This document shows, in pieces, positions 9,329 to 34,155 of a stretch of DNA of 64,000 nt. The translations under genes were made by a program, and so were the position numbers. Location of the stretch: assembly GCA_965261125.1 (NCBI GenBank), contig CBDHCS010000003.1, positions 460,801 to 524,800 on the forward strand. Reading direction: 5' to 3'. The stretch is from Candidatus Poribacteria bacterium (GTDB lineage Bacteria > Poribacteria > WGA-4E > WGA-3G). Under the pieces are notes generated by a model. The model was not told the origin of the DNA, did no database searches, and worked only from the letters and a program-made list of their open reading frames with translations. The stretch's first letter is position 1; every line of letters starts with the position of its first letter.

Positions 9329-9365
9329 AGCATTCGTTCTTTAACAGATTCAAAATCAATTTTTA

Positions 9366-11456: not shown

Positions 11457-11471
11457 TGTCCTTCTCTTTGA

Positions 11472-12716: not shown

Positions 12717-12725
12717 TTCTCCTGT

Positions 12726-13139: not shown

Positions 13140-13244
13140 TCTGGTAAATCTCTTTCAGTTTGGATTTGTTATAGTTTCACATAAATACACAATAATTTCA
13201 ACAAGTAATTGTGTGGTAACAAACCTCTCATTATGGCTATTTGC

Positions 13245-14417: not shown

Positions 14418-14421
14418 CTCG

Positions 14422-15342
14422 TCACCCGATGAACTGTCTCAAGAAGATATGGCTCTGCCTTAAGGCGCGTTGTCGTGTCTCTAATGTTTCCTCGTACGCA
14501 CGATCCTCAATCTCAACACAGACCGAACCATCATAACCTGTATCGCTTAAAACAGAAAAAAAACTGCCCCAGTCCACATCGCCAAGTCCCGGCAGTTTTG
14601 GTGTATGATACGCCAGCGGCGTTGCAAGAATACCAACCTCATCAAGTCGTTCCCTATCTAACCGTACATCTTTCGCATGCACATGGAAAATGCGACCAGC
14701 AAAGGTAACAAGCGGTTTTAAGTAATCCATCTGAAGCCATATAAAATGGGATGGATCAAAGTTGAGTCCAAAATTCTCGGATGGAATTTCTTCAAACATC
14801 CGTTCCCAAATCGATGGAGAATAGGCAAGGTTTTGCCCCGCGGGCCATTCGTCTTCAGTGAAAAACATCGGACAATTTTCAATACCGATACGGATACCAT
14901 GGTCTGCAGCAAATTGAATTAGGGGTTTCCACACCTGCACAAACCGTTCCCAATTGCCGTCTATTGTCCGTGTCTGATCCCTACCGATGAACGTGTTTAC
15001 AATGTCTACCGATAAACGTTTCGCTGCCAATATTAGTTGTTTAAGGTGTTCGCTATAGATATTCGCTTCTGTTTCATTAGGTGTCAGCGGGTTCGGATAG
15101 TAGCCTAAACCACTAATCGTTATCCCCGCATCCGAAACACATTGTAGAATGTCATCTGCTTCTGCTTCGGAAAGGGACGCTACATCAATATGTGTAACGC
15201 CTGCATAACGTCTTTCCGCTTTTCCTTTGGGCCAGCACATCAACTCAACGCAATCGTAGCCTGTGTCGGCAGCAAATTGGGCAACCTCTGCCAATGTCTG
15301 ATCAGGCAAAATCGCACTTACAAATCCGAGTTTCATATACAA
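14422..15342 (-). CDS. sugar phosphate isomerase/epimerase (xylose isomerase-like TIM barrel)
   Basis: 306 aa with TIM-barrel family motifs. It lies 4 bp upstream of the aminotransferase-like gene. Confidence 0.7.
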
Positions 15343-15508
15343 CCTCCATATTGCTTTTTAAACATTATACTACGCATCAGACAATTTTTGGAGATTTTTG
15401 AATCCCGAAATAGAAATTTACACCGCTCCGTATCTCTTTACACATCAGTTTGTCTACAAAAACTTTACACACCCAAGAAAAACATTATGCGGACAGGGAT
15501 AGAGCAGA

Positions 15509-17458
15509 CTACTGATTAAGAACTAAAGTAGTTAAATCCCACAAAAGAATTGTGCCATCGGCACTGCCACTCGCAAGCGTTTCCCCATCGGGTGAGTACG
15601 CAAGACTATTCACAACATCCGTATGTCCCATATAAGTATCCAGTAGTTTTCCTGTTTGCACGTTCCAAAAGTAAATTGCACCATTGTCTCCACAAGCGAT
15701 CAAACTACCATTTGGAGAAAATGCAACAGAAAATATTTTCTTTGCTTGTCCTTTAAGAGTTCCTAACAATTCGCCTGTCTGACTGTTCCACAAGCGGAGT
15801 GTCCCATCGTGACTTCCGCTGGCAAATATGCTGCCATCGGGTGAATATGCCACCGCATAAACACTTCCTGTGTGGTCAGCAAGGGTTTTCAGTGAATTCC
15901 CAGTTTGCACATCCCACAATCGGACTGTCTTGTCGCAGCTGCCTGTGGCGAGGCTGCCTCCATCTGGAGAAAACGCTACGGCGCAAACACTGTCTGTATG
16001 TCCAGTGAATGTCAACAGCAAATCGCCAATAAGATACAGTTCACCTCTGCGGACTTCCCATAAGCAGGTTGTGTTGTCATGGCTGCCAGTGGCAAGCATG
16101 CAACCGTCCGGAGAAAACGCGACTGAAGATATATTTTCTTTATGTCCAACGAAGGATCCAAGGAATCTTCCGTTTTGAGCATCCCATAATCGCGCTTTTT
16201 TTGTATCCTCTGCACTTGCGAGTATTTTACCGTCCGATGAATATGCGACTGCAAGTACATTTTGTTGTGGACGACGAAAAATTTCCCAGGAATATGTGAT
16301 AGTTGTTTGGATTTCACCGGCCTCTGAGTTTCGCATAAGAATTTCGGTCCCATAGCTACTCGCGAGTGTGTTGCCATTTGGAGAGTAAGCCACAGAATAA
16401 GTGCGTTGAGAAGGATGACGTGTTCCAACTGTTTTTTGCGGAGGACGTGTTCCTTCTGTTTTTTGGGTAGAAGAACAATGAAGGGTATGATCCGAAATCG
16501 TTTCTAAGATTTTGCCAGTGTTTACTTCCCAAAACCGAATCGTGCCAATCTCACTTGCACAAGCAATCGTTTCGCCATCGGGTGAAAATGCTACAGAAGA
16601 GGGCCAAGAATTTACATCTACCTCAAGTTCAAACCTTTTCAGCAATTGTCCAGTGCCAACATCCCAAAGACAGACATCATCACCATGTATTCCAGTAGCG
16701 AATGAGCGTCCATCAGGAGCAAATGTAATAGGTGAGAAATCACCCATCCAACTTTCGGCTTCACACGTTTTCAGTTTTTTACCTGTGTTAGCATCCCAAA
16801 AATTAATTTCTCCACAGCTATCTCGACTAATGAGCATGCTGCCATCAGGGCTGTACACAATATATTCTACCCAATCAGTCCCTTCAGTAAAGTGTTTTAG
16901 CAATTCACCTGTTTGTGCATCCCAAACCCAAATTCCACCTTTTCCACCAAAAGCTTCACTGCTGGCAATTGTATTTCCATCTGGCGAAAAAACTGCTGAA
17001 AAAACGCTCTCCGTATGCTCCTCAAGTTTTGCTAACTGTTGTCCCGTTTGTAGATTCCAGAGCCCAATCGTTTTGTCGTCACTTGCAGTGGCAAGCCTTT
17101 CACCATCCGGACTGAAGGCAACAGCGTTGACAGTCTCCGTATGCCCAATGAAAGTTGCTTTGTGTTCCCCTGTATTGGCATCCCACAAACGTGCAGTCTT
17201 ATCATCACTCGCGGTTGCAAACGTTCCCCCATCCGGACTAAATACTATTGAATTGACTGGACCTGTATGTCCCGTTATCAGTTCAAGGGGTTTGCATGTT
17301 TCCACATCGTAAATCCAGACTCCTATTGTGCTGGCAACGGCGAGCCGTGTGCCATCCGGAAAAAATTTTATTTCATTTATCCCTCCTTTGCCAATGCGTT
17401 TTTTGGCACCTGGGGGAAGTTTCCACTGTGTGTAGTGTTGCAGATTTTGCATGTTCAT
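15509..17458 (-). CDS. WD40-repeat beta-propeller protein
   Basis: 649 aa of WD repeats. The N-terminus has KLPPGAKKRIGKG. It is a paralog of 21428-23423. Confidence 0.85.
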   Translation of the reverse strand: MNMQNLQHYTQWKLPPGAKKRIGKGGINEIKFFPDGTRLAVASTIGVWIYDVETCKPLELITGHTGPVNSIVFSPDGGTFATASDDKTARLWDANTGEHKATFIGHTETVNAVAFSPDGERLATASDDKTIGLWNLQTGQQLAKLEEHTESVFSAVFSPDGNTIASSEAFGGKGGIWVWDAQTGELLKHFTEGTDWVEYIVYSPDGSMLISRDSCGEINFWDANTGKKLKTCEAESWMGDFSPITFAPDGRSFATGIHGDDVCLWDVGTGQLLKRFELEVDVNSWPSSVAFSPDGETIACASEIGTIRFWEVNTGKILETISDHTLHCSSTQKTEGTRPPQKTVGTRHPSQRTYSVAYSPNGNTLASSYGTEILMRNSEAGEIQTTITYSWEIFRRPQQNVLAVAYSSDGKILASAEDTKKARLWDAQNGRFLGSFVGHKENISSVAFSPDGCMLATGSHDNTTCLWEVRRGELYLIGDLLLTFTGHTDSVCAVAFSPDGGSLATGSCDKTVRLWDVQTGNSLKTLADHTGSVYAVAYSPDGSIFASGSHDGTLRLWNSQTGELLGTLKGQAKKIFSVAFSPNGSLIACGDNGAIYFWNVQTGKLLDTYMGHTDVVNSLAYSPDGETLASGSADGTILLWDLTTLVLNQ

Positions 17459-17504
17459 CTCCTCCCAATCTCTATTTTTGATGTGTAGTAAAACCTATAA
17501 TTAT

Positions 17505-17635
17505 TGGGACACTTCTGTAGCGCAAACTGTTAGTTGCGTCCCATCGGCACAAACTATAGTGAAGCTTAGAAATAAATAGACACTTTCAACCGACTGCTGG
17601 CGAGGTTTCCTAACCTCGCTGGTGCAGAAGTGTCC
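17505..17635. repeat. inverted-repeat-bounded element (GGGACACTTCTG ... CAGAAGTGTCC) containing the tcct-loop hairpin
   Basis: The two terminal 11-12-mers are reverse complements. A related left end occurs at ~62826. Confidence 0.5.
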
Positions 17636-17695
17636 AATTAATTCTAAAATTCACTGTAAATGAATATTAAATAAATATTTCGGGTACTTTCTTTA

Positions 17696-17750
17696 GTCCC
17701 GTGAATCAACGCCAAATACGCGTTTGGTATTTGGCGTTGATTCACGGGAC
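17696..17750. repeat. perfect 23-bp-stem hairpin (GTCCCGTGAATCAACGCCAAATA-cgcgtttgg-TATTTGGCGTTGATTCACGGGAC)
   Basis: Exact reverse complementarity was checked base by base. Related AATGC-CAAA...TTTGGCATT hairpins occur at ~20928-20951 and ~28321-28350. Confidence 0.8.
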
Positions 17751-17841
17751 TAATTAGGACAAACACAATAACCATGCGTATTGATAAGAGTTCATAATAA
17801 TGTAGACGTTTCTTAAGTTGACACATAAGGGTTCCGTTTCT

Positions 17842-17980
17842 GCACAACCTAAATGAAGATTAATTTATTAATTCGGTAATTTCCCATATCTACACAAGTC
17901 ATGTGCAAGCCTCTGCTGGCGAGGTTTCCTAACCTCGCCAAATTACCGATTTATTTTCTTAAACTTCATACAGGTTGTGC
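17842..17980. repeat. MITE-like element, copy 1 (~139 bp; ~40-bp imperfect terminal inverted repeats GCACAACCTAAATGAAGATTAATTTATTAATTCGGTAATTT; central GCGAGGTTtcctAACCTCGC hairpin)
   Basis: The left end and the reverse complement of the right end align. A second copy lies at 62872-63068. Confidence 0.7.
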
Positions 17981-18025
17981 TACAGAAATGAAATGTCTAA
18001 GTAATTATATGCTTTACTATAATCT

Positions 18026-20599
18026 CTACTTCGTTAAATCCCATAAAATTACTGTGCTGTCTCTACAGCAACTCGCGAGCGTTTTGCCATTTGGAGAAAA
18101 GACTATAGAATTAATACCACTTATATGCCCCTTTAAAGTTTTCAGAAGTTTTCCTGTAGCAACATCCCACAAAAGTATTTCATCCTGAACACCTACACTT
18201 GCCAGCGTGTTGCCATCTGGTGAAAGGACAGCATAAACAATATAATAATCTTTTGCTTTTAAGTGTGTGATAGATTTTTGCTCTGCAGTTGTAACATCCC
18301 AAAACTTGATTTTCCCGGCGTCGTCTGCGGTTACAAGGATTGTCCCATCAGGGGAAAAATCTATAGAATTAACATCAACATCTGCTTTCATTTTTATAGT
18401 ATTCAACAGTTCACCCGTTGCAACATCCCGAAAACGAATTGTTTCATCGTCTTCGATACTGGCTAAAATCTCTCCATTGGGTGAAAATAAAACTGTGCTA
18501 ACATGCGGTGCATGCTTTTTAAAGGTTTTTAAGTGTTTTCCCGTGTGGGCATTCCACAATCGGATTGTCCCGTCCCAACTTCCACTTGCAAGGGTTTGTC
18601 CATCTGGACTAAAGGCTACCGAGGATACGCCATCTGTATGTCCTTTGAGAACTCCTCTTTTTTTCCATTCGCTAACATTCCATAGTACCGTTTTATCCAT
18701 AGTTCCACAAGCGAGTGTCTCCCCATCTGAAGAATACGCGATTGCCCTTATTGACCCTTTCACAGAAAGTGTTTTTGTGGAAAGTGTTTTTATGAGTTTT
18801 TGCGTTTCTAAATCCCAAATACGTACGATATTGTCTAAACTTGCTAATGTCCTCCCATCAGGAGAGTATGCTACAGAACTGACAACATCAGAATATCCGG
18901 TGATTGTCTTTTCAAGTTCACCAGTATTCACATCCCAGAAATATATTTCATCACAGGTTTTAACGGCAAGTGTCTGTCCATCTGGTGAAAATAGAAAACC
19001 AGTAACCCACTCTGCATGTCCAGGCATTTTGAGATCATGTAATAACTCTCCTGTGTCAGCATCAAATAGTAGGACTGTTGCTTCTCCATAATCCTCACTA
19101 CATGCAAATATTCTTCCATCCGGAGAATACTGCACAACCTCAAGCTTTCTATCCTGTTTTATTGTTTTCAGTTGCTCACCGGTATGGGGGTTCCACAGTC
19201 GGATATTTTCATCGGAATTAACACTCACAAGTGTTCTCCCATCTTTTGAAAAGTCAATAGAAAAAGCATTTTCTGTCCAAGTTGTGAGTATGCGCAAAAA
19301 TTCGCCAGTCCGTGCATTCCATAGACAGACATTGTTATCTCCTCCTTGACTGACAAGGACCTCTCCATCTGGAGAATACTTCAGAAAATCGACAATATTT
19401 GCGTGTGCTGCGAAGGTTAACTGTAGTTCAGCAGTGGTAACATCCCATAAACGGATTACTTCATCATTACCGCCACTTGCAAGTGTGCTACCATCTGGAT
19501 TGAATGCTAACGTCTTGATTGGAGCTGTATGTCCTATGAGAGTTGATTTTAATTCACCTGTGTCACCATCCCATAAACAGATGCCGTCTTCACCAGGACC
19601 TGCCAGTGTTTTCCCATCAGGACTGAAAATAGGGAAAATAGGAGAATCTATCCCCTCTGTAAGTACAGCTTTAGATTCACCAGTGACTGCATCCCATAAA
19701 CGAATAGTATCGTCTCCGCGGTATCCTTTACTTAAACTTGCCAGTGTCTTCCCATCAGGACTGAAAACAACGCTACGGGCATAATACGTATGTCCAGTTA
19801 CATAACCAGTATGTCCAGTTAACAGATTGATTTCCTCACCGGTTGTGACATCTATCAACCAGATACCGATTGTACTTGCTAAAGCAAGGCGGGTGCCATC
19901 TGGCGAATAAGCAAAATCAAATACATAGCCTTTCCCGAACCGTGTTATTGCGTCTTTCGGTAGATAGTTTTCAATATAATTCTCAAGATTGTGCGATCGA
20001 ACGGATTCTAACAACATAATATCTCCTTGTTGCGGTTCAACGCCAAACTCCTTACGCAGGAGTGAGCGAACTTCTCTTAATCTTGTTTTGACTGTGCCTA
20101 TAGCTAAGTTAAGTTCGTGGGCAATGTCTTTGACACTCCATGATTCAAGGTAGTACAGGACCGCGATGGGACGTACCCGATGTGGAAGGTGATGCACCGC
20201 CTCTCTGGCATCTGCGCGTAATTGTGCTGCCTGATAACGTGTAGGGGCATCTTGGTCAATATGTTCGGCTAAATCCGCATCGCTTTGTGGGATTTCGTCT
20301 TGTGAACGGCGATGAGAAGAATAATACCTATTGCACGCGTTATATGCAATGCGTCGCAGCCACGCACCAAAACTATCTATTTTCCGGAGACCCCCTATGT
20401 TTTCCCACACTGCCATCCAGATGTCAGTCCGAATTTCTTCCGCATCCCGGTGTTGCCTTGATTTTGAGACAACGATACGCCAAATACGTGGTGTCCAACG
20501 GGACATAAGTTCCGCAAATGCCGCTTCATCGCGGTTTTGTACAAGACATATCAATTCATCGTCTTCAAGGTCACTGAGATCTATCAAATCATTGTTCAT
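18026..20599 (-). CDS. ECF-type sigma-70 factor fused to C-terminal WD40 propeller (soluble)
   Basis: The N-terminus has sigma-70 region 2 (FAELMSRWTPRIWRIV...) and a region 4 helix-turn-helix (DIAHELNLAIGTVKTRLREVRSLL). It is followed by YLPKDAITRFGKG plus more than 12 WD repeats. No TM segment is present. Confidence 0.85.
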   Translation of the reverse strand: MNNDLIDLSDLEDDELICLVQNRDEAAFAELMSRWTPRIWRIVVSKSRQHRDAEEIRTDIWMAVWENIGGLRKIDSFGAWLRRIAYNACNRYYSSHRRSQDEIPQSDADLAEHIDQDAPTRYQAAQLRADAREAVHHLPHRVRPIAVLYYLESWSVKDIAHELNLAIGTVKTRLREVRSLLRKEFGVEPQQGDIMLLESVRSHNLENYIENYLPKDAITRFGKGYVFDFAYSPDGTRLALASTIGIWLIDVTTGEEINLLTGHTGYVTGHTYYARSVVFSPDGKTLASLSKGYRGDDTIRLWDAVTGESKAVLTEGIDSPIFPIFSPDGKTLAGPGEDGICLWDGDTGELKSTLIGHTAPIKTLAFNPDGSTLASGGNDEVIRLWDVTTAELQLTFAAHANIVDFLKYSPDGEVLVSQGGDNNVCLWNARTGEFLRILTTWTENAFSIDFSKDGRTLVSVNSDENIRLWNPHTGEQLKTIKQDRKLEVVQYSPDGRIFACSEDYGEATVLLFDADTGELLHDLKMPGHAEWVTGFLFSPDGQTLAVKTCDEIYFWDVNTGELEKTITGYSDVVSSVAYSPDGRTLASLDNIVRIWDLETQKLIKTLSTKTLSVKGSIRAIAYSSDGETLACGTMDKTVLWNVSEWKKRGVLKGHTDGVSSVAFSPDGQTLASGSWDGTIRLWNAHTGKHLKTFKKHAPHVSTVLFSPNGEILASIEDDETIRFRDVATGELLNTIKMKADVDVNSIDFSPDGTILVTADDAGKIKFWDVTTAEQKSITHLKAKDYYIVYAVLSPDGNTLASVGVQDEILLWDVATGKLLKTLKGHISGINSIVFSPNGKTLASCCRDSTVILWDLTK

Positions 20600-21048
20600 A
20601 AACAGATTTCTAATTCGGTTTTAATATAAAGAGGCAGGTTTTCAAGGAGAGGGTTTAAAAAAATGCAAAAATTATATTTTTCGGAAGAATTACCAGTCTT
20701 AAAGGGCATCTTATGAATAGGATCTATTGGGTTGTCTCTGTCCAACTTATATTAACAGGACTTACGCAAATTCAAGTATCCCTGTTTAGAATTTTGTCCT
20801 TTCACGGATATTAACCCTGATTTTTTGTCCTTTTCAAGGTTTTACCCCCCTTTATCCCCCCGCAAGCGGGGGGAATGCGTGAGTCCTGATTAAATTACCG
20901 GGATTTATCTTTTTCCGGACGGTGAATCAATGCCAAATGCGCTTTTGGCATTTAGGCGGGTGCGGTTTCCTAACCAATTCAGAATACCGAACGCGTATTC
21001 TGACATACCCATAGGCATCAACTTAAGGAATTTTGATTTTGAGTCCAT

Positions 21049-21277
21049 CTCTTCAGTCCCGTAGGGACGATATGTTTATAGAATTATGTTCAACTACCTC
21101 TTCAGTCCCGTAGGGACGATATGTTTATGGACCTGTTATTGGCATCTACATATCGTTCCTACGGAACTCAAGAGGGGTGGTGACAGCGTTTTTCTATAAA
21201 CATATCGTCCCTACGGGACTAAGAGAATAGGGATAACACGTGCTACTATAAACATATCATCCCTACGGGACTAAAAG
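21049..21277. repeat. array of five ~30-bp repeats (CTCTTCAGTCCCGTAGGGACGATATGTTTAT) with 17-22-bp spacers: two forward copies, then three reverse-complement copies
   Basis: Copies at 21049-21080, 21098-21128, 21148-21174 (divergent), 21196-21225 and 21248-21277. Each contains a GTCCC-gta-GGGAC mini-palindrome. Confidence 0.8.
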
Positions 21278-21427
21278 TCGGGACACTCTCAATCCTAATG
21301 CCTATTGAACCGGGTTTATAGAACAAGAAATATTGTCTTAAATTGACATTTATGGCAATTTGTCTATTAGAAATGGTACTACAAACTGAATAGGGATAAT
21401 GGAAATGGAGATATCAGCACAAATTAG

Positions 21428-23423
21428 TTATTGATCACGGACCAATTTTGTGAGATCCCACAACAGAATTGTGCCATCAGAACTCACGCTTGCAAGCGTT
21501 TCACCATCTGGAGAAAACACAACAGCGTTGACGCTCTGTGTATGTCCGATAAGGGTTTGAAGACGTTCCCTCGTTTGTGCACTCCAGAGGTGGACAGCGT
21601 TGTCGTTTTCAGTCCCACTTGCGAGTGTTTCCCCATTTGGAGAATATGCCAAAGAAGTTACTTGTCCTGCTTCTTCAATTGGCGGAAGCATCAAATCGCC
21701 TGTATTAGCGTTCCATAATCGGATAGTGCCATCCGCACTTCCACTGGCAAGTGTTTTGCTATCTGGGGAATACACTACATCAGTAACAGACTCTTCATGT
21801 CCTGTGAGTGCCCTAAGATGCGTGCGGGTGTCTATGTACCAAAGTTGAATTGTTTTGTCATGGCTGCCACTTGCAAGTGAAGTGCCATCAGGTGAAAATG
21901 CCACTGCAGTGACTCTGTCCGTATGTTCGGTAAAGGTTGCCAAACGTTCACCAACCGGATATAATTCACCTGAACGAATTTCCCATAAACAGACCATATT
22001 GTCTTCACTACCGTCTTTCTTGACAGCATTTCTGGGGCCTCTTCCTCCCACCTCCGCTGGCAAGCGTCCTGCCATCGGGCGAAAACGCTACGGAAGAAAC
22101 CTGATACTTATATCCGTCAGTAACCCTGTCCTTATGCCCCTTAAAACTGCCGAGGAACCGTCCGCTCTGCACGTCCCACAAACGCGCTTTCATAGAAGTA
22201 CCACCAGTTGCAAGTAGCTTTGCATCGGAAGAATATGCAATTGAATGGACATCACAACTCGGTTCTTTGATCGTTTTTAGATGTTCACCCGTCTGTGGAT
22301 TCCACCATTGGATTTTGGACTCACCCCCACAAGCAAGTGTGTTACCATCAACGGAATATGCCACAGAATAAATTTTTGAGGAAGCATGTCCGGCTATCGT
22401 TTTTATTAAATCACCAGTAGCAGCATCCCAGAACCCTATCGTGCCATCGTCACTTCCACTTGCAATTGTCTTTTCATCAGGGGAATATGTCACAGAATTG
22501 ACCGTGTCAGCATGCCCCATGCTTTTCAAAAGTTTTGCCATGCTAACATCCCAAATATCAACTCTGTCCCAATAACTACCTGAAATGAGAGTGCGTCCAT
22601 CAGATGAAAACTCCATAGACTCAAAATTACCTATCCACTCTGTGTGGCTTTTTAGGAGTTTGGCTGTTTCTACATCCCAAAATTGAAGTGGACCTTCACC
22701 ACCGCAAGCCAAAATCTTGCAATCATGTGAAACTGAGACAGCATTGAAATTCTCTTCAATTAGAACATCTTTTAAATGATCACCGGTTTTTGCATCCCAG
22801 TACTCGATATAGAATTCGTATTTGTCCCAATTTCCGATTGTGAGGATCATCGTTCCATCAGGAGAATATGTCATCGCCAACACTGGAGAAGCATCAGACT
22901 TTATAGTTTTCAGAAGCTCTCCGGTTTGCGCGTCCCAAATATGTGTATTCCACAGATCACAGTGACTGGCAAGTGTTTCCCCAGTAGGGCTAAACGCAAT
23001 TAAATTAATACCGTCTTTACGGCTACTGTTGTCTTTCTGTCCAATACAGGTCGCTTTATGTTTACCTGTACTTGTGTCCCACAATCGAATAGTGTAATCT
23101 TCACTACCCGTGGCTAAAGTTTTACCATCAGGACTGAAGGCTATTGACTTAACCGGGGCTGTGTGTCCTGTAAGCAGGTCAAGTACTTCTCCTGTTTGAA
23201 CATCATAAATCCAGATACCGATAGAAGTCGCGACTGCCAGCCGTTTGCCATCAGGAAAATATTTTATCTGATGTATTCTGCCTTTTCCGAGTCGTGCTTT
23301 GACACCTGCAGGTAAGCCTAAGCGGGTATGGTTTTGAGAGAAAGCGGTTGCAGACAAAAAAATTAACAGATAGAATGTAGAGATTAGCGGTCCAAAAGTC
23401 AGAACGATGTTTAATATTTTCAT
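21428..23423 (-). pseudogene. WD40-repeat protein with N-terminal signal/TM, disrupted by a 43-nt frameshifting insertion (~22010-22052)
   Basis: Two overlapping ORFs (22008-23477 and 21428-22075) rejoin into an in-frame LASGSEDNMVCLW repeat if 43 nt are removed. An AAGGAG ribosome-binding site precedes ATG 23423 (MKILNIV...). Confidence 0.65.
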
Positions 23424-23477
23424 ACAATTTAAACTCCTTTGAAGATTGTGTCTGTTGTCTATATTATGCAATGGCAC

Positions 23478-26219
23478 TTACTGCGGAACATCCCATAGTA
23501 GAACTGTGCTGTCCCATCCGCCAGTGGCAAGGGTGCGTCCGTCTGGTGAATATCTGATAAAATAGACACCTTCTGACCTATTACTTCTTTTATGTCCGAT
23601 GGCAAAAGTCTGAATAACTTTACAAGTCTCTGCATCACAAAACGATAATTTACCGTCCGAATCAATGCCAACAATTGTACGTCCATCTGGCGAATATGTC
23701 CGAAAGTATGTTTTTTCTTCTGATGTAATGGTTTTCAGCGGTTCATCACTATTCCTATGCCAAAACTGGATAATGCGACTTCCGAAGTCAATGCTTACAA
23801 ACTTTTCCCAGTACGGTGAAAGTACAATTGTGTCCGCCTTAATGTCCTTTACGGTTCCACCGGTAGCGATGTCCCAAAAACGTGTTCCCGAATCACTTGT
23901 ACTGACAAGCATCTTTCCATCAGGTGAAAACGCTAAAGTTCTGACAAAATCGCTGTGCCAATCAAGTATTTTTAAGGTTTCACCTGTAGACACTTCCCAT
24001 AAGTGAATAGCACCGTAAGAGTCTCCACTTGCAAGTATCTGTCCATCAGGACTAAACGCTACCGATTCAGCACCATCCTTGTTGTGTCCTGTGAAAACGC
24101 GTCCGTGTTCACCTGTTTTAGTATTCAAAAGAAAAACCGTATCATATTCGTCCGGTCCACCCCCGCATGCAAGCGTTACGCCATCTGGAGCATAAGCGAT
24201 ACAAGTGATACTAATGGAACCCGGAGAGTAGATCTTTTTTAGTTTGCCAGTGTGCGGATCCCATAATCGCAGACTTGGACCGGTGCTTACAGTAGCAAGT
24301 GTATTTCCATCTGGTGAATATGCCATATCACGAAACATTTCTGCGTAGCCAGTCAATGTTCGTATCGGATCAGTGGTAGCCACATCCCAAAACCGAATTG
24401 TACCGTCACTGCCTGCATTTACCAATGTCCTACCATCCGAGGAGAACACTATATGATGGGTTGTTTCTGGTGGACTTTTAATAGTTTTTAGACGTTCGCC
24501 TGTAGCTACGTCCCAAAACTGAATCATATCATCTTTGTAGTTGTTGCTGACAAGTGTTTTTCCATCGGGGCTAAACATTACTGAATTAACGCCACCGGAA
24601 TCTGTTGTAGCAGTTAAGGTTGTCTTAAGCTGTCCGGTATGATATTCCCAGAATCGAATTATCCCATCCTCTCCGGCACTTGCTAAAGTTTTGCCATCAG
24701 GTGAATATGCGATGGAATAAACATCTCCCTTATACCCAGTAATTGAGCGAAGGAATTCTCCAGTGTGTGCATCCCACAGATGAATCATTTCATCCATGCC
24801 GTGGCTGGCAAGAATTTCACCATCTGGCGAATACATCACTTCGGAGACACTACCTGCATGTCCAGCAAAGACAAGAAGTTGTTCACCTGTAGCCACATCC
24901 CACAAACGAATTGTTTCATCTTCACTCCCACTTGCCAGTGTTTTCCCATCAGGATTAAACACTACCGAACTAATACCTTCAGTATGTCCAGTGAGTGTCG
25001 TTCTTAGCTGTCCGGTTTGTGTATCCCACAATAAAATTGTGTTGTCGCTGCCATCGCTTGCTAAAAGTCGGTTATCAGGACTAAAGGCGACTGTTGAAGC
25101 ACTTTCCATGTGTTCTGTGAGTAGGTTAAGTTCTTTACTGGTGTGTGCATCATAAATCCATATACCGATGGTGCCTGCTGCAGCAAGCATTGTACCATCT
25201 GGGGAATACGTCATATCAAATATGTGTCCTTTTCCGAGGCGCGCTTTCGCACCTTCAGGCAATTTCCACTTTGTAGAATCTTGAACAAGGTTATTTTGCA
25301 TAGATGATTTTCCTTTTGCTAATCCGTCATTACTGTTTTTGTCGGAGACAGCATCGCTTCCAACCCGATTTTGCACATCAGGTTTTGATTTGATATTAGG
25401 GATTATCGGTGTCTCAACGATTTCAATTGTGGCTTCAGATTGTGCCTCAAAACTATATGGCAACTGAAACTGAGTGAGGTATTGATTACTCGCGCCTATC
25501 AGTAAAATAACTAATATTAGAGATGAACCTAAAGCACCCAGCGGCAACAACGGTTTACCCACTGAAGGGGATGTCTGTTTTACCTTGGCGATGTCCTGCA
25601 TGATATTTGCAGTTAGATCGGGAGATAACGGAACAGTGCCGAGGGTTTCTTGAATCATGGAAACTTCTTCTCTTAGACGTTTCCGTGCGCGGCTCAACCG
25701 ACTTTTAACCGTGTTCGGTGAAACACCTAAAAATTTGCTAATCGCTTCGCAAGTCATCTCTCCGAGGTAGTGGAGTATTACGACCGTGCGTTCACTTTCT
25801 GGCAGCTTTTCCAAAAGTTTTTGCACGACTTCACGGCGGCGCTCAACTTCCGCCTCTTCACGCTGTTCCGAAATATAACACGTGTATGCTGTTTCTTCTA
25901 ATGTTTCTTGACTCGTCGCTTCAAGGGATTGCACCGGCTGTTTTTTCTTTCGCAGCCACGCGATGCATTGTCTATTAGCGATCACATACAACCATCCGGT
26001 AAATTGGTTCGAGTCTTTCAGAGTTGGCAGTTTTTTGTATACCTGTAGGAAGATGTCTTGTGTAATTTCTTCAGCAATATGGAAATCGCCTATTTTCCGC
26101 CATACAAGCGCGTGAACACTTTTTTGGTATTTTTGGACTAAGGCACTAAAAGCCGCCTCGTCACCGGATAAGATTTTATGAATCAATTCAGCATCGCTTT
26201 TCTTCATTAGGGACCTCAT
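23478..26219 (-). CDS. ECF-type sigma-70 factor fused via TM helix to WD40 propeller
   Basis: The protein has sigma-70 region 2, a region 4 (VSPNTVKSRLSRARKRL) and a TM segment (PLLPLGALGSSLILVILLIGA). These are followed by KLPEGAKARLGKG and WD repeats. This fused architecture was previously reported for Planctomycetes ECF groups. Confidence 0.85.
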   Translation of the reverse strand: MRSLMKKSDAELIHKILSGDEAAFSALVQKYQKSVHALVWRKIGDFHIAEEITQDIFLQVYKKLPTLKDSNQFTGWLYVIANRQCIAWLRKKKQPVQSLEATSQETLEETAYTCYISEQREEAEVERRREVVQKLLEKLPESERTVVILHYLGEMTCEAISKFLGVSPNTVKSRLSRARKRLREEVSMIQETLGTVPLSPDLTANIMQDIAKVKQTSPSVGKPLLPLGALGSSLILVILLIGASNQYLTQFQLPYSFEAQSEATIEIVETPIIPNIKSKPDVQNRVGSDAVSDKNSNDGLAKGKSSMQNNLVQDSTKWKLPEGAKARLGKGHIFDMTYSPDGTMLAAAGTIGIWIYDAHTSKELNLLTEHMESASTVAFSPDNRLLASDGSDNTILLWDTQTGQLRTTLTGHTEGISSVVFNPDGKTLASGSEDETIRLWDVATGEQLLVFAGHAGSVSEVMYSPDGEILASHGMDEMIHLWDAHTGEFLRSITGYKGDVYSIAYSPDGKTLASAGEDGIIRFWEYHTGQLKTTLTATTDSGGVNSVMFSPDGKTLVSNNYKDDMIQFWDVATGERLKTIKSPPETTHHIVFSSDGRTLVNAGSDGTIRFWDVATTDPIRTLTGYAEMFRDMAYSPDGNTLATVSTGPSLRLWDPHTGKLKKIYSPGSISITCIAYAPDGVTLACGGGPDEYDTVFLLNTKTGEHGRVFTGHNKDGAESVAFSPDGQILASGDSYGAIHLWEVSTGETLKILDWHSDFVRTLAFSPDGKMLVSTSDSGTRFWDIATGGTVKDIKADTIVLSPYWEKFVSIDFGSRIIQFWHRNSDEPLKTITSEEKTYFRTYSPDGRTIVGIDSDGKLSFCDAETCKVIQTFAIGHKRSNRSEGVYFIRYSPDGRTLATGGWDSTVLLWDVPQ

Positions 26220-28224: not shown

Positions 28225-28406
28225 AATAATAATAATATCTCCTTTATTTTATCTGCCATAAGTGCATCTTGGTGAAATTTAACTACGTAGGTTTAGGTAG
28301 AGCAAGCAAACCCAAAATTAACGCTGTAAATGCGCTTTTAGCATTCAGCGGGTGTCAATTTAGCAGTCCTCTAACCTCGGTAGGTAAGGTTCTCTAACCG
28401 CATTTT

Positions 28407-28500
28407 TTGTCTGAACCAAGATTTACAGGATTGAGAGCATCTACATAAATAAGATTAATCCTAAAATCCGATAATCTTGCAAATCCTGGTTCAGACAAAT
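28407..28500. repeat. inverted pair of AATCCTGGTTCAGACAA-family repeats
   Basis: TTGTCTGAACCAAGATTTACAGGATT at 28407 and AATCCTAAAATCCGATAATCTTGCAAATCCTGGTTCAGACAA at 28459. Other family members are at 3133-3160 and 40141-40318. Confidence 0.65.
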
Positions 28501-28687
28501 AGTGGAACACCGATAATCATTAACTCACTGAGAAAAAGGCACAATAAATTGCGCGACTACAATACTGATATTCTTAAAATCTGTCAAATGCCATGCGCGC
28601 ATTTCGCGTAATCAGTGCAATCTGCGAAAATCCGTGATTCAGAACAGTAATCGAACGGACAAAGCCCTTCTACAAGAAAGAATTACC

Positions 28688-29955: not shown

Positions 29956-31758
29956 TTATTCTGCACTGATAAACTTCCTCAAATTCTCTAACGTTTTTTC
30001 GGCAATACCATGGATCTTAGTGATATCTTCCACAGAATCAAATTTTCCATGCTTTTCGCGGTACTCAATAATATCTTGTGCTTTTGCTGGTCCGATGCCC
30101 GGGAGCGTTTGAAGTTCTTTAATAGAAGCAGTATTGATATTGAGAAGTTCGGAAATAGGTTTTAGCGGCGGAGGTTCTGGTTCAATCGGATTCTTAACGT
30201 CTGAATTCTGCGGAGGTAGTTTCTCCGAGTCAGATTCCTGGGGCTTTTCAGTTATCTGTTCTCGCAAATCTGCGATTTCACTTTCCAGTTTGGAGTTCTT
30301 ACTGGTGTATTCCTCAAGTTGCTTATCCTTTTCAGTTATTTGCTCTTGCAATGCTTGTTTTTCATTTGCAAGCGTTTCGATTTTATTTCTCAGTTGTGAA
30401 ATGGCTTTGGTGTTATCCTGAATTTGTGTATTTTTTTCAGTTAATCGTGTGTTATCATGTTTCAGTTGGGTGATGATCCTGGTGTTGTCCCGAATTTGCC
30501 TGTTCTTTTCATCTAACTGCATTATCAGAACTGTAAGACAAATACACAAAGCCACACCTAATACACCGGTAATGTATTGCCAAAGACGTGGCGCGGGATT
30601 TGAGGGAATAGGTAGCGGAGTTGGATTCGGATTTGGTTGTTCAGGAAAAGGCTGTGCTTTTTCGTCCCTTACCATCGTCTCAAAGTCAGAACGGGTGATC
30701 TCGGTAAATTTACCTTTTCCAAGATTCTTAAGAAAAGTCCATCCATTAGGGTCTGTATCATCGGCAAATAAACCTAATGTAGTGCCGCTTGCATTGAGAT
30801 AAGATTCTAGCTGATCTATCCCGCTGGTTCCATCATATCCAATGTGTTTGCACTCCGCAATGACAGATAATTTGTTCTTACTATCCTTTAACACAACATC
30901 TGCTCGACCTTGCTTAGCCCCGAATTGGATCGGATATTCCTGTTTTGTAGAAAAATCCTTAAACCTATTGAAATAACGCATGACTGCCCCGACGACAATC
31001 CCCTCATGCTCAACTTGGGCATAATGACACATAGGACACAATTCATAATTGGTGTCATGGCACTGATTACACTGATTACAACGAGTTATTGGCGGGTCTG
31101 CTAAAACCTCCGGAACACGTACTATATCCGCAGAATTGTTAATAATGATCTGATATGTGTTTCTGGCTGAGAAGATTTTGAAATTCCCTTTTACGCTTAC
31201 TTCCTCGCCTTCTGTCAAAGGAAAAGGCAAGTTATTTGCAATTGACGGAGGGAGTGAACATTCAATGCTGTTACTTAGTGTCTCATTTGCTGTTGCGGTT
31301 TTGAGCTTAAAATTAGTCCAACCCGTATTTGCTTCATAGATATCTGAAATTTGCCCTTGTCCTTCTCCCAAATGATCCGCTACGGTATTTTCTAATACCT
31401 CTGTTAGAGCGGCAACAGAAACAGATTGATTTGGTAAGGGATTTTCAGGCAGATTTATATCTGTAACCTTAAACCGATATTCGCTGCTAACTCCATAGAT
31501 AAAAATCTGTCCTTTGATATATACACCACTTCCTTCTGAAGGCAAATCTGTTTGGAGAGATGTTCCATTGTCAAAAATGACACAATCAATTTTTTCATTG
31601 CTATCCTTGATCGTAAAATTGAGCGGGCCATTTTGTATAGATCTGATATTTGAAATTTTACCACGTATCCAGACATCTTGTAGATCAGAATTAGCCTGTA
31701 CAATGTCTATTAAGTGCTGCGTAATCTCGCTAACATTTGACATACATATCCCTTTCAT
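29956..31758 (-). CDS. membrane protein: XseA-like OB-fold + Zn ribbon + PD-(D/E)XK nuclease-like domain, TM, coiled coil, C-terminal ComEA helix-hairpin-helix
   Basis: The start is uncertain: the ORF track extends to 31845, and candidate ATGs lie at 31758 and 31743. The OB-fold segment (WIRGKISNIRSIQNGPLNFTIKD...IDCVIFD) resembles the ExoVII large-subunit N-terminus. A CNQCNQCHD...CPMCH motif and a GRADVVLKD...IAECK nuclease triad follow. The C-terminal ComEA motif reads NINTASIKELQTLPGIGPAKAQDIIEYRE. Confidence 0.7.
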   Translation of the reverse strand: MKGICMSNVSEITQHLIDIVQANSDLQDVWIRGKISNIRSIQNGPLNFTIKDSNEKIDCVIFDNGTSLQTDLPSEGSGVYIKGQIFIYGVSSEYRFKVTDINLPENPLPNQSVSVAALTEVLENTVADHLGEGQGQISDIYEANTGWTNFKLKTATANETLSNSIECSLPPSIANNLPFPLTEGEEVSVKGNFKIFSARNTYQIIINNSADIVRVPEVLADPPITRCNQCNQCHDTNYELCPMCHYAQVEHEGIVVGAVMRYFNRFKDFSTKQEYPIQFGAKQGRADVVLKDSKNKLSVIAECKHIGYDGTSGIDQLESYLNASGTTLGLFADDTDPNGWTFLKNLGKGKFTEITRSDFETMVRDEKAQPFPEQPNPNPTPLPIPSNPAPRLWQYITGVLGVALCICLTVLIMQLDEKNRQIRDNTRIITQLKHDNTRLTEKNTQIQDNTKAISQLRNKIETLANEKQALQEQITEKDKQLEEYTSKNSKLESEIADLREQITEKPQESDSEKLPPQNSDVKNPIEPEPPPLKPISELLNINTASIKELQTLPGIGPAKAQDIIEYREKHGKFDSVEDITKIHGIAEKTLENLRKFISAE

Positions 31759-31850
31759 ATTATCTGATACTACAACTAATTGAAGTACAAAAAAAATTTT
31801 CTTCTTAACGTTATCCCTATTTGTGTTACTTACGAAAAGACTCAATTCCC

Positions 31851-32075
31851 CTATGATGCCAAAATGCGTTTAAATTCATCAAGGTTGGGCACCTGAACTG
31901 CCTCACGTAGCAACTGCTTGAGGGACTGTAATTCTTCAATGTTCTCAAGCGCAGGTTTTAACATTTGCACATCATTAGGTTGAAAGCGTACATCTAACAC
32001 ATTAAGTATATTCTCAATGTTAGCCTTTCTTTCAGCTTTCTCCGAATAGTATTGTATAACAGATGATTGTTGCAT
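31851..32075 (-). CDS. small DUF4351-like protein
   Basis: 74 aa, 5 bp upstream of the nuclease-ComEA gene. The pattern ILNVLDVRF...LENIEELQSLKQLL...LDEFKRIL resembles the DUF4351 C-terminal module of PD-(D/E)XK proteins. This assignment is from memory. Confidence 0.45.
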   Translation of the reverse strand: MQQSSVIQYYSEKAERKANIENILNVLDVRFQPNDVQMLKPALENIEELQSLKQLLREAVQVPNLDEFKRILAS

Positions 32076-32184
32076 GGTTTCCTCCGAATAAATATTACGA
32101 ATATCTTGAAAATCAAAAAACCCCGTTGTTACCCAAAAACGATTTCATATCTCCACAAGCAACTGGTTCTATAACGGTTTATTT

Positions 32185-34155
32185 CTAATTACCTCTCCGA
32201 ATTTCGTCAATCAATTTTTGTACTTCAATAACGGCTCTCGGCGGATTTTGCAATTTCTCACCGATAGACAAAATTAACATATAATACTCGTAAGCGGTTT
32301 GGAGATCACCGATGAGATGTGCGCTTTCAGCAGCATTAAAATAACAAACAGTCGCAGAAGATTCGCACTTTTCAACATCCAGACTCATCTGGGCAAAACG
32401 GTAATTGTCGGCAGCAAAAATGTATGACATACCAGCTTCAATCCATGCGCGTTGCATTTCTAATTGTCGTGCCAGATGAACGTAGTACGCAGCTCCATTT
32501 CTTGCGTTTTTTCTTGCACTCCGTTGTTTTTGTGCAGCTGCGTAAGCAAATCGCGCGCGTGTATAACAATTCGCGACGAGTTCTATTTCGTCCATCCGAA
32601 TAAACCGTCTGGCGTGTCTGTGATAAAAAGCGCCGAGTCTTTTATACTGCCCAAGGCATCCACGGGCGTTTTCTTGTTGCATAAAAATTTGTGCTTGTTG
32701 GTAGATATACGCTGCTTCTTCCTCATGTGGATACTGTATATCTTCGTGAACTTTATCCAATAAAAATTCAGGTGAAGCTTCTTCTATTAAGACACGGTAA
32801 TTGTCTACTTGTTGTGCCTCAGTTTTAGGAAAAGAAATTGTATCTAATTCCCCCTGGTAAACTTCGGGAGGCTCCGGAAAAACTTCAGGTTCAGCCTCGG
32901 TTTCCGATATGCTTAACGTATTAAATAGGTTTGTTTTTTCTGTTTCAGGGAGTGCCTCAATCAGTGCAGCAATCTCCTGAACTGTTGGGGCATTCGGCAG
33001 CGATTTTGCTGTGCTTGCTTCCTTGAAGAGTGTATCTGCTTGGGCAACAAGTTCTGCATCCTGTAGGCAGAGGTCATGTGCCTTATGGAGTTCTCGAAGT
33101 GTGTCATCTATGGCTCCGGTGCGTGCATATTTAATCGCTTCGGTGTAGTGTTGTCTAAGTCGTATCTTAACACGTTCGCGGTTCTCTTTCTCGTCTTTGC
33201 TGCGCATCTCAAAAAAGAGGTTCTGGTTGATAAACTCGGCAACATCAATTTCTAATCGGAAAGTCTTTCGACAACGTTCAAGTGCGCTCGCTAATTCAGT
33301 TGCGGGGGAATTAGCACTTTCTGCAATAAGGACAGAGGCTTGTTGTTCGTATTGCCAGCGGCGAATGCGGTCAAGTTCTTCGTACATTTCAGATGCTGTT
33401 TGGTAACGTTTATCCACATCTCGATGAAGTGCTTTTAGCGAAAAATTCCGGAATTCCTCTGGGCATTTTTCGAGGTTCTCTATTTCACCCGATGCTTTCT
33501 TTCTATCGATTTCATCGGCTTCGCCAGAAAAAGGGAATTGTTTTGTGAGTGCCTCATAAAGCACTAAACCTGTAGCATACAAATCCGCACGAAAATCGTA
33601 AGCACCGTAGTGTTGCTCTGGTGCCATATAGCGTCGGGTACCGGTCATAGTTACAGCGAATTCGGTTGTTTCACCAAAAATACGTGCGATACTAAAGTCT
33701 GCTATTTTTGCTTCTTTTTCGGGAGTGAGTAGTATATTTTGTGGTTTAATATCACGGTGTAGGATATTGTGGGCATGCGCAGCTTTTAAACCGTTGCATA
33801 TATCTAAACCAATATTAAGAACATCATTTAATGTTAAATCTCCTTGTTGAACAAGTTGATTTAGATTAGTTCCATCAATATATTCCATAACTATCCAGGC
33901 AAGGCAGTTATCTTTCCCGGGTTCAACAGTATGGATTGAGACAATATTAGGATGTCCCCATATATTTGACATTGCTTGAAGTTCGGTTAAAAGATAGCGC
34001 ATTCTGTCCGCTGGATAAGCATCTTTGGAAAGTGCTTTGATCGCAACGATGCGGTCCGTCATCTCTTCGCGCGCACGAAAAACAGACGAAAAACTGCCTG
34101 AACTGAGATACTCAAGCAACCTATATTTACCTAATATCAATTCGTTAATCTTCAT
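32185..34155 (-). CDS. Hanks-type Ser/Thr protein kinase with helical/TPR-like C-terminal region
   Basis: The kinase domain has HRDIKPQNILL, DFS, GTRRYMAPEQ, and K in VAIK. About 350 aa of helical repeats follow. Confidence 0.88.
   Translation of the reverse strand: MKINELILGKYRLLEYLSSGSFSSVFRAREEMTDRIVAIKALSKDAYPADRMRYLLTELQAMSNIWGHPNIVSIHTVEPGKDNCLAWIVMEYIDGTNLNQLVQQGDLTLNDVLNIGLDICNGLKAAHAHNILHRDIKPQNILLTPEKEAKIADFSIARIFGETTEFAVTMTGTRRYMAPEQHYGAYDFRADLYATGLVLYEALTKQFPFSGEADEIDRKKASGEIENLEKCPEEFRNFSLKALHRDVDKRYQTASEMYEELDRIRRWQYEQQASVLIAESANSPATELASALERCRKTFRLEIDVAEFINQNLFFEMRSKDEKENRERVKIRLRQHYTEAIKYARTGAIDDTLRELHKAHDLCLQDAELVAQADTLFKEASTAKSLPNAPTVQEIAALIEALPETEKTNLFNTLSISETEAEPEVFPEPPEVYQGELDTISFPKTEAQQVDNYRVLIEEASPEFLLDKVHEDIQYPHEEEAAYIYQQAQIFMQQENARGCLGQYKRLGAFYHRHARRFIRMDEIELVANCYTRARFAYAAAQKQRSARKNARNGAAYYVHLARQLEMQRAWIEAGMSYIFAADNYRFAQMSLDVEKCESSATVCYFNAAESAHLIGDLQTAYEYYMLILSIGEKLQNPPRAVIEVQKLIDEIRRGN

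Follow-up and report, generated by a model that had tools for sequence, protein, structure and literature searches.

A Poribacteria protein with tandem OB folds and a predicted PD-(D/E)XK nuclease on one side of a membrane helix and a ComEA-type DNA-binding domain on the other

Introduction

Membrane-anchored nucleases are known from RmuC, EndA and NucA. RmuC consists of a transmembrane (TM) helix, a coiled coil and a PD-(D/E)XK domain, and EndA and NucA act on transforming DNA at the membrane. Here we describe a protein encoded on the minus strand of a 64,000-nucleotide (nt) stretch of DNA from Candidatus Poribacteria, an uncultivated sponge symbiont (assembly GCA_965261125.1, contig CBDHCS010000003.1, positions 460,801 to 524,800; hereafter the window, with positions counted from its first letter). 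In this protein two oligonucleotide-binding (OB) folds, a zinc ribbon and a predicted PD-(D/E)XK nuclease are joined through one TM helix and a coiled coil to a ComEA-type helix-hairpin-helix (HhH) domain. RmuC, unlike the present protein, has the reverse domain order and carries no DNA-binding head outside; in EndA and NucA the nuclease lies outside the membrane, whereas that of the present protein probably lies inside. All parts are known domains, and no description of their combination was found.

The gene is preceded by a mini-ORF that belongs among the Rpn-like genes. RpnS, a short tail protein encoded within the gene of the long Rpn nuclease or on its own, acts as the antitoxin of that nuclease (PMC10400941). 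Such long/short pairs have been shown by experiment to be antiphage toxin-antitoxins and are enriched near defence genes (PMC10400941).

Results

Gene model and domain architecture

The gene and the predicted domains of its 595-amino-acid (aa) product are given below, with the predicted local distance difference test (pLDDT) of the AlphaFold2 (AF2) model where it applies.

29956..31743, minus strand: nuclease-ComEA gene, 595 aa plus stop, ATG at 31743, product identical to database entry P0001
31429..31743, minus strand: OB fold 1 of XseA-N / tRNA_anti_2 type, residues 1-105 (PF13742, TIGR00237, Foldseek, AF2)
31108..31428, minus strand: OB fold 2, residues 106-212 (second tRNA_anti_2 stretch; AF2 beta-barrel, pLDDT ~90)
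31012..31107, minus strand: Cys4 zinc ribbon, residues 213-244 (C222, C225, C236, C239; pLDDT low, 55-71)
30664..31011, minus strand: PD-(D/E)XK nuclease of HSDR_N_2 / RecB-family type, residues 245-360 (E247, D282, E297-C-K299, Q311-xxx-Y315)
30586..30663, minus strand: Pro-rich disordered tether, residues 361-386 (AQPFPEQPNPNPTPLPIPSNPAPR; pLDDT ~44)
30514..30585, minus strand: single TM helix, residues 387-410 (LWQYITGVLGVALCICLTVLIMQL; Kyte-Doolittle 2.45 over 19 aa)
30250..30513, minus strand: coiled-coil stalk, residues 411-498 (~88 aa; AF2 long helix)
30142..30249, minus strand: Pro/Glu/Lys-rich linker, ...PIEPEPPPLKP..., residues 499-534 (36 aa; pLDDT 41-45)
29959..30141, minus strand: predicted ComEA-type HhH DNA-binding domain, residues 535-595 (PF12836, TIGR00426; pLDDT 87-95)

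The long minus-strand open reading frame (ORF) reported in a first-pass annotation of this DNA is present. The ORF list has it begin at a TTG (29956..31845, 629 aa). In the database, the copy P0001 is 595 aa long and begins MSNVSEITQ, the homologues begin at the same point, and an AAGGGA sequence lies 7 nt upstream of the ATG at 31743. The TTG start at 31845, which leaves a 5-bp gap to the preceding 74-aa mini-ORF, was therefore rejected as an artefact of ORF calling, its 34 extra residues occurring in no homologue. With the true start at 31743, the gap that had been given as 5 bp is 107 nt (31744..31850). Scans for promoters and terminators found no terminator in this spacer and only promoter matches at chance level, no Rfam family or tRNA was found near the gene, and no DNA tandem repeats underlie the region encoding the coiled coil.

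Tandem OB folds, zinc ribbon and nuclease domain

The N-terminal part matches PF13742 (tRNA_anti_2) in two stretches (83.5 bits against a cut-off of 27, E 1.2e-23). The XseA model TIGR00237 is matched at positions 2-94 of 389 only (85.6 bits against a cut-off of 180), and no match to PF02601, the catalytic domain of exonuclease VII (ExoVII), was found by Pfam search in the protein. The first OB fold superposes on E. coli ExoVII (8txr_B) with a root-mean-square deviation of 2.1 A over 97 columns at 27% identity (Foldseek); its pLDDT is 83-94, and the aromatic residues W25, F43, Y89 and F91 are nearly invariant. The top Foldseek matches of the N-terminus in the PDB are tandem-OB proteins that bind single-stranded DNA (ssDNA), namely the Thermus/Deinococcus single-stranded DNA-binding protein (SSB; 2ihf, E 2.8e-9), RPA, POT1 and HIN-200. 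Hence the XseA-like OB fold of the first-pass annotation is there, as one of two. In the ribbon, a 71-sequence family alignment shows no variation at C222, C225 and C236 and at least 90% conservation at C239; of the CxxCxxC...CxxC pattern proposed earlier the Cys4 set is thus a family trait, and the third cysteine of CxxCxxC (C228) is not conserved.

The nuclease region passes PF13588 (HSDR_N_2) with 33.3 bits against a cut-off of 25. Residues E247, D282, E297, C298, K299, Q311, L312 and Y315 are invariant in the 71 family members, and the GRADVVLKD...IAECK motif named earlier is present. Judged from the sequence, the conserved residues are motifs I-III of a nuclease together with a QxxxY motif, beside the Cys4 ribbon. 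The QxxxY motif characterises RecB-family nucleases and HsdR (PMC2475608).

Structure was predicted by running AF2 on the 71-sequence family alignment (full-length mean pLDDT 80.8). The model places the first OB fold at residues 1-100, the second at 110-205, the ribbon at 215-243, the tether at 362-381 and the Pro/Glu linker at 500-530, and the nuclease region forms an alpha/beta domain with a pLDDT of 92-94. A separate model of residues 215-365 (pLDDT 88.6) was matched by Foldseek to the restriction-endonuclease-like 3ijm (E 2.3e-4) and to the HsdR fragment 3h1t (TM score 0.56), with further matches to Cas4 (4r5q), DUF820/Uma2 proteins, 1wdj, DrdV and lambda exonuclease. The list is coherent, though its E-values are modest, and it supports a predicted restriction-endonuclease-like fold. 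Modelling of this part, proposed as a check in the first-pass annotation, thus predicts a PD-(D/E)XK fold for residues 245-360. No ResIII or other helicase (SF2 translocase) match was found in the protein, and no HsdM or HsdS genes lie nearby.

Membrane helix, stalk and ComEA head

In a hydropathy scan, YITGVLGVALCICLTVLIM is the only TM-like segment of the protein (Kyte-Doolittle 2.45). A TM helix occurs in all ten ComEA-type family members and in no member that ends in a Macro domain, so the helix claimed between nuclease and ComEA domain proved to be single, hydrophobic and conserved. AF2 predicts one uninterrupted helix from residue 386 to 498 that spans TM segment and stalk. The stalk shows a regular a/d heptad pattern of I and L, is rich in E, K, Q and T, and varies in length among homologues (574-637 aa in total size). 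The coiled coil described earlier as ~120 aa long is in fact a helical stalk of ~88 aa, after which comes the Pro-rich linker of 36 aa.

The C-terminal domain assigned to the ComEA HhH family was confirmed by TIGR00426, the ComEA HhH model (75.5 bits, passing the cut-off of 53.1), and by PF12836 (HHH_3; 79.6 bits against a cut-off of 27, E 1.9e-22), and is 52-58% identical to annotated ComEA-family proteins. The full-length ComEA model TIGR01259 failed (84.4 bits against a cut-off of 152.35, covering model positions 59-119 of 120). The part comprising TM helix, stalk, Pro linker and HhH domain resembles a complete membrane-anchored ComEA.

The protein has no signal peptide or N-terminal hydrophobic segment. 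Eight cysteines, including the zinc site, lie in the N-terminal 386 aa and none in the 187 aa after the TM helix; in the ten ComEA-type homologues there are 7-15 cysteines before the helix and 0-1 after it. An exhaustive HMMER search found TM segments in 45 of 144 representatives carrying the same nuclease module, several of them C-terminal tail anchors, and in those relatives the nuclease is therefore cytoplasmic. The lack of a signal peptide, the cysteine asymmetry around the helix and the tail-anchored relatives together suggest, as the parsimonious topology, that the N-terminus is in and the C-terminus out, with a cytoplasmic nuclease and a periplasmic ComEA head. A cytoplasmic placement is thereby favoured over the surface or periplasmic nuclease that had first been envisaged. 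The positive-inside rule was also considered as a guide to orientation and was uninformative. Given the conserved TM helix between the two halves and the modelled nuclease fold, it is plausible that the protein binds DNA on both sides of the membrane.

A Poribacteria family with exchangeable C-termini

Among 5.8 billion proteins searched, 82 relatives were found. The named relatives, and 17 of the 19 loci in GTDB species representatives, belong to Candidatus Poribacteria, to which the family appears to be confined. About ten relatives end in the TM/coiled-coil/ComEA module, the fusion whose distribution the first-pass annotation had proposed to check. About 60 end in a Macro domain without a TM segment (MacroD/YmdB-like, E 1.7e-35 to 5cb3), and others terminate in a long coiled coil or have no C-terminal domain. 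The nuclease module alone is also found in coiled-coil proteins with four TM segments, in TPR proteins and in Tubulin_2 fusions. In the last of these, the HSDR_N_2 module stands at the N-terminus of Tubulin_2 (PF13809) proteins (P0127, 1084 aa; P0135, 1116 aa); its further partners include coiled-coil plus four-TM domains, TPR arrays and C-terminal tail anchors.

The type of C-terminus is independent of N-terminal similarity. The query core shares 56% identity with Macro-type P0007. Between the query and ComEA-type P0010, identity is 35% at the N-terminus and 78% at the C-terminus, and reaches 90% over the TM helix plus the next 60 aa. Within the family, the nuclease domain is best conserved (65% mean identity), followed by the OB folds (50-52%). 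Ten ComEA-type clusters with 35-70% N-terminal identity retain the full frame, the catalytic and zinc residues, the TM helix and the HhH domain. In some members the coding sequence is divided between two frames that overlap or adjoin (L018:4019-5004; L008:3980-5695; L017:3872-5567), in L018 with the nuclease apart from the TM-HhH part, and in L008 and L017 with the first OB fold apart from the remainder; these may be frameshifts, pseudogenes or assembly errors.

Public names each reflect one domain (P0032, P0002, P0038, P0054): 'exodeoxyribonuclease VII large subunit', 'competence ComEA-like helix-hairpin-helix protein' and 'O-acetyl-ADP-ribose deacetylase (regulator of RNase III)'. Such single-domain annotations are misleading. 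A metagenome scan with the TM/coiled-coil/HhH module recovered ordinary ComEA HhH domains only and no new N-terminal partners. An origin on a mobile element was considered and set aside, since searches of 50,697 phage records, 72,556 plasmids and IMG/VR contigs turned up no composite homologue.

Cassette exchange at a syntenic slot

The family diversifies far faster than the genes next to it, in a recombination-prone slot. The order of the slot is DnaJ or a kinase, Rpn-like genes, the gene of this family (the core gene), an aspartate aminotransferase, variable inserts and a sulfatase; in the window the neighbours are the kinase, the RpnS-like ORF and the aminotransferase. Between the window and the related loci L001 and L004, the kinase, aminotransferase and sulfatase proteins are 92-97% identical, whereas the core protein is 63% identical to that of L001 and 50% to that of L004. 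L001 and L004 themselves share 99.7% identical DNA over 7.9 kb upstream and 96% downstream, but blastn similarity is missing in the stretch between them that starts 87 nt ahead of the start codon and ends at the last codons before the TM helix. Thus the whole half presumed cytoplasmic has been swapped as one cassette, with the TM-ComEA chassis left constant. The upstream breakpoint of this recombination lies in the spacer equivalent to 31744..31850. In L005 (6234-10803) three paralogues stand in tandem: a Macro-type protein of 564 aa, a ComEA-type protein of 430 aa with a single OB fold, and a 435-aa form without a C-terminal domain. The slot also houses DUF433/DUF5615 pairs, an N6_N4 methyltransferase (MTase)-HNH gene, SLFN_AlbA_2 and transposases.

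The MTase-HNH gene encodes a 460-aa fusion of an N6_N4 DNA methyltransferase and an HNH nuclease, lies between aminotransferase and sulfatase in several genomes (L005:12151-13533; L006:11188-12570; L007:11189-12571; L029/L030 at ~10.7-12.2 kb) and is absent from the window. SLFN_AlbA_2, rve and DDE transposase genes are found in this interval as well. In the window, the 463-nt spacer between aminotransferase and sulfatase holds an inverted repeat at 28401-28504 (32-nt arms, 84% complementary; RNA fold -38.8 kcal/mol, z -6.0), at a site where other genomes carry inserted genes. A 'MIR172' Rfam match there was discarded, being sub-threshold, on both strands and simply a long hairpin.

In the lineage of the window, the ancestral DnaJ-Rpn-core locus is split between two sites of the same 1.28-Mb contig (L027:5349-6222 and L001:5359-9725). 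L027 retains DnaJ, a truncated long form and a short form; the second site, ~840 kb away, carries kinase, short form, core gene and aminotransferase. The break appears to have occurred inside the Rpn array. The Ser/Thr kinase of the window (32185-34155, minus strand; Pkinase E 7.6e-49) has a helical C-terminal region of ~350 aa without a Pfam match and gives strong but generic kinase matches in PADLOC (PD-T4-6, mad6). A functional link between kinase and nuclease was considered and set aside, since the kinase is adjacent only in the window/L001/L004 lineage, where the ancestral locus was split.

The mini-ORF and the Rpn-like genes

The region upstream of the nuclease-ComEA gene holds the following features.

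31744..31850, minus strand: intergenic spacer between mini-ORF and nuclease gene, 107 nt
31851..32075, minus strand: 74-aa mini-ORF, stand-alone RpnS-like / DUF4351-equivalent tail (profile search, hhalign)
32076..32144, minus strand: in-frame Rpn long-form remnant, ...FFDFQDIRNIYSEET-M, with SEE codons tcg-gag-gaa forming a GGAGG Shine-Dalgarno sequence

The 74-aa ORF is genuine and conserved, a profile search finding more than 262 relatives in Poribacteria, among them long forms of 310-370 aa of which it is the C-terminal tail. The long forms have an N-terminal RADSF...H-EFQ region and match cyanobacterial genes (tblastn E down to 4e-14) annotated 'DUF4351 domain-containing protein' or 'Rpn family recombination-promoting nuclease/putative transposase'. 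Compared by hhalign with a Nostoc 'DUF4351 domain-containing protein', they align over 277 columns, tail included (probability 99.5%, E 1.4e-22), and the mini-ORF profile aligns with the Nostoc tail (probability 89.5%, E 2e-6). The Pfam model PF14261 (DUF4351) gave no match to the mini-ORF or nine short relatives even at E <= 10, and none in 18 longer relatives; the best score of mini-ORF relatives against TIGR01784 was 20.1 bits (cut-off 52.1). A PDB profile search with the long forms matched no Rpn structure (best E 0.25), and PADLOC returned only coiled-coil or weak matches for them. By sequence kinship, then, the mini-ORF is the RpnS-like tail of an Rpn/DUF4351-family nuclease. The DUF4351 likeness first noticed holds through transitive homology, by way of the long forms and the cyanobacterial proteins; PF14261 does not find it, and the mini-ORF shares no tail with the nuclease next to it.

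An invariant EETM is retained in the long forms at the point where short forms begin, with a GGAGG formed by the SEE codons. A 4-aa GIEQ repeat, present in 0 to ~12 copies, starts ~13 residues after this internal Met. In RpnL/RpnS, a criterion is a 4-aa repeat whose number varies, 8-20 aa after the internal Met (PMC10400941). The window mini-ORF has no GIEQ repeats and no long partner, only the truncated remnant. A stop-to-stop frame (31854..32144) is matched by the hidden Markov model of the mini-ORF family, and upstream of the mini-ORF ATG it reads FFDFQDIRNIYSEET before the stop; what survives in the window is therefore the 3' end of a long form, in which the start of the short form is intact.

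In 17 of the 18 loci with enough flank, the core gene is directly preceded on its own strand by Rpn-like long and/or short genes, in arrays of up to six. In these arrays (L010:652-3851; L028:1579-6246; L029:3071-6246; L030:3167-6246) long (~320-370 aa) and short (~75-95 aa) genes are 18-40 nt apart, the first long gene overlaps the dnaJ stop by 4 nt, and the copies vary in how many GIEQ repeats they contain. The arrangement has the look of an RpnL/RpnS locus, specific to Poribacteria, that is amplified and hypervariable. Nothing indicates that the mini-ORF regulates the adjoining nuclease: no shared tail is seen (hhalign probability 0.3%), and it does not co-vary with the swapped cassette. Docking of RpnS onto the core nuclease was rejected on the same two observations.

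Other genes in the window

Seven large WD40-repeat proteins, eukaryote-like, are encoded at 7304-26219 (minus strand), some split or adjacent (21428-22075, 22008-23477, 23478-26219). At 49573-51324 (minus strand) lies a UvrD/REP-type helicase with a GIY-YIG nuclease domain inserted in its N-terminal helicase domain (residues 133-206).

Discussion

A nuclease possibly tethered at the envelope

The architecture of the protein is secure; its function is not. The domain set, catalytic conservation, TM helix, predicted folds, synteny, cassette swapping and Rpn adjacency were computed, and from these we infer topology, nuclease activity, substrate, a defence role and coupling between the membrane sides. 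Our leaning, held tentatively and with rather less than even confidence, is towards a defence-like nuclease tethered at the envelope, whose periplasmic ComEA head places or triggers it where DNA enters. Extreme diversification driven by recombination, modular C-termini, tandem paralogues and defence-type neighbours argue for such a conflict role. The 'restriction device' suggested in the first-pass annotation is retained to this extent, fitting the fast diversification, cassette swaps and Rpn neighbours better than competence does, without the surface or periplasmic placement of the nuclease that went with it.

On this reading the protein would be a bitopic inner-membrane protein, probably an oligomer held by its coiled coil. 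In the cytoplasmic N-terminal 386 aa, the tandem OB unit would bind ssDNA, and the zinc ribbon with the RecB/HsdR-type PD-(D/E)XK domain would cut it; the flexible Pro-rich tether would keep this unit at the membrane. In the C-terminal 185 aa, the TM anchor, a coiled-coil stalk of ~13 nm and the Pro-rich spacer would display the HhH head, which may bind double-stranded DNA (dsDNA), in the periplasm. There the head might localise the protein, or switch it on, where foreign DNA crosses the envelope, and the cytoplasmic unit would then capture and cleave the entering DNA.

Several points weigh against this interpretation. Phage DNA is normally not exposed in the periplasm, and a DNA receptor located there is easier to reconcile with transformation or environmental DNA than with defence against phage. 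The charges flanking the TM helix are roughly balanced (in the window protein, net +1 on the N side and +1 on the C side) and leave orientation undecided. Nearly all PADLOC-DB 2.0 matches of the core protein are to coiled-coil proteins (LmuB, PbeC, JetC), the single other match being a weak one to a Type I MTase model (residues 301-365 in the 629-aa numbering, E 1.3e-4). Copies on phages, plasmids or viral contigs were looked for and not found. The Rpn adjacency may be inherited synteny within one phylum, and the placing of the family in one syntenic slot, apparently shared by most Poribacteria, is also compatible with a housekeeping or repair gene of this lineage.

Alternative explanations

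That last point bears on a housekeeping role, which we consider unlikely. The protein would then be a DNA-repair or processing nuclease with an ExoVII-like ssDNA core, the Macro form removing ADP-ribose at lesions, from DNA or from proteins, and the ComEA form being an envelope-tethered derivative without a conflict role. Its position between DnaJ (or the kinase) and the aminotransferase is kept in all loci examined, the OB fold is nearest to XseA, the Macro domains are MacroD/YmdB-like, and the nuclease domain is the best-conserved part at 65% mean identity. However, repair genes are not normally 40-50% divergent where their neighbours are 92-97% identical, nor are they swapped as cassettes; the tandem paralogues and variable C-termini point to diversifying selection, and the ExoVII catalytic domain is absent.

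A two-sided 'DNA-entry checkpoint' would couple the two halves directly: the ComEA head, on a stalk that spans the periplasm, would bind foreign dsDNA there and position or activate the nuclease via the oligomeric stalk and TM helix, and ssDNA leaving the uptake channel would be destroyed. We regard this as distinctly doubtful. To our knowledge, no such single-polypeptide system has been described. If true, the cell would have in it an immunity device dedicated to blocking transformation or, in more general terms, a transmembrane DNA sensor working from the outside in, with a cytoplasmic 'warhead' swapped between strains as a cassette.

Competence-like uptake, the other possibility raised in the first-pass annotation, fares poorly. 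As a competence accessory, the protein would be a ComEA paralogue that takes periplasmic dsDNA, its OB/nuclease part trimming ssDNA delivered by ComEC and so promoting uptake or recombination. The ComEA-type HhH domain is genuine, the order of TM helix, linker and HhH is that of membrane-anchored ComEA of Gram-positive bacteria, and SSB-like tandem OB folds suit a hand-over of ssDNA. Yet no comEC, pil, dprA or other competence genes occur in the 64-kb window or the related loci, and most family members are soluble Macro fusions with no obvious link to uptake. Extreme allelic diversification and swapping of cytoplasmic cassettes would also be unexpected of uptake machinery, and we judge a competence role quite unlikely.

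Improbable, too, is a toxin-antitoxin pair analogous to RpnL/RpnS, with the mini-ORF as cognate antitoxin of the nuclease. An RpnS-like gene does lie immediately upstream on the same strand in most loci, and RpnS proteins neutralise PD-(D/E)XK toxins (PMC10400941). However, RpnS works via a tail shared with its own long form, and the core protein has no such tail (hhalign probability 0.3%); L001 and L004 share essentially the same RpnS gene but unrelated nuclease cassettes, and the full RpnL-like partners in many loci already account for the short forms. A functionless, decaying nuclease-ComEA chimera is most improbable, for although the locus is recombination-prone and L018 has nuclease and TM-HhH in separate frames, ten distinct clusters have kept an open frame together with TM helix, HhH domain and the invariant residues of the catalytic and zinc sites.

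Should topology and activity hold, the protein would link DNA outside and inside the cell in one polypeptide, and would bear on the control of gene flow in bacteria of DNA-rich, phage-rich sponge tissue. The family is a natural example of module swapping, in which the C-terminal module or the whole presumed cytoplasmic half is exchanged as a unit. It also marks a previously unnoticed hot spot of amplified Rpn long/short genes in Poribacteria and extends the Rpn 'gene-within-gene' story to another phylum.

Comparison with known systems

The mini-ORF family resembles RpnL/RpnS in its shared long/short tail, the internal Met behind GGAGG, the variable 4-aa repeats and the stand-alone short genes. 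It differs in that PF14261 and TIGR01784 stay below threshold, the Poribacteria arrays reach six genes, and the window copy is without repeats or long partner. With XseA the nuclease-ComEA protein shares a first OB fold of the XseA N-terminal type. Unlike XseA it lacks PF02601 and matches positions 2-94 of 389 only, and the GenBank name 'exodeoxyribonuclease VII large subunit' on a Macro-type member is a mis-annotation.

As in HsdR N-terminal and RecB-family nucleases (PF13588, PF04313), D, ExK and QxxxY are invariant, and Foldseek points to 3h1t and Cas4. In contrast to HsdR, the protein lacks an SF2 translocase and has neither HsdM nor HsdS in its neighbourhood; its nuclease follows a Cys4 ribbon and two OB folds, and it is probably membrane-tethered.

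Membrane-anchored ComEA, for example that of Bacillus subtilis, has the same order of TM anchor, spacer and HhH, and the HhH domain of the present protein passes the ComEA-domain model. Here, however, the TM helix is preceded by 386 aa of OB-OB-Zn-nuclease, presumably cytoplasmic, and a heptad coiled coil replaces the usual spacer/oligomerisation region; the full-length model fails, and the competence gene context is missing. The Macro paralogues (e.g. P0016, P0032, ~560 aa) share the OB-OB-Zn-nuclease core (35-58% identity) as well as the chromosomal slot and the Rpn neighbours. Their C-terminus is a soluble Macro domain without a TM segment, whereas the clade of the window protein carries the TM helix, the coiled coil and the ComEA domain.

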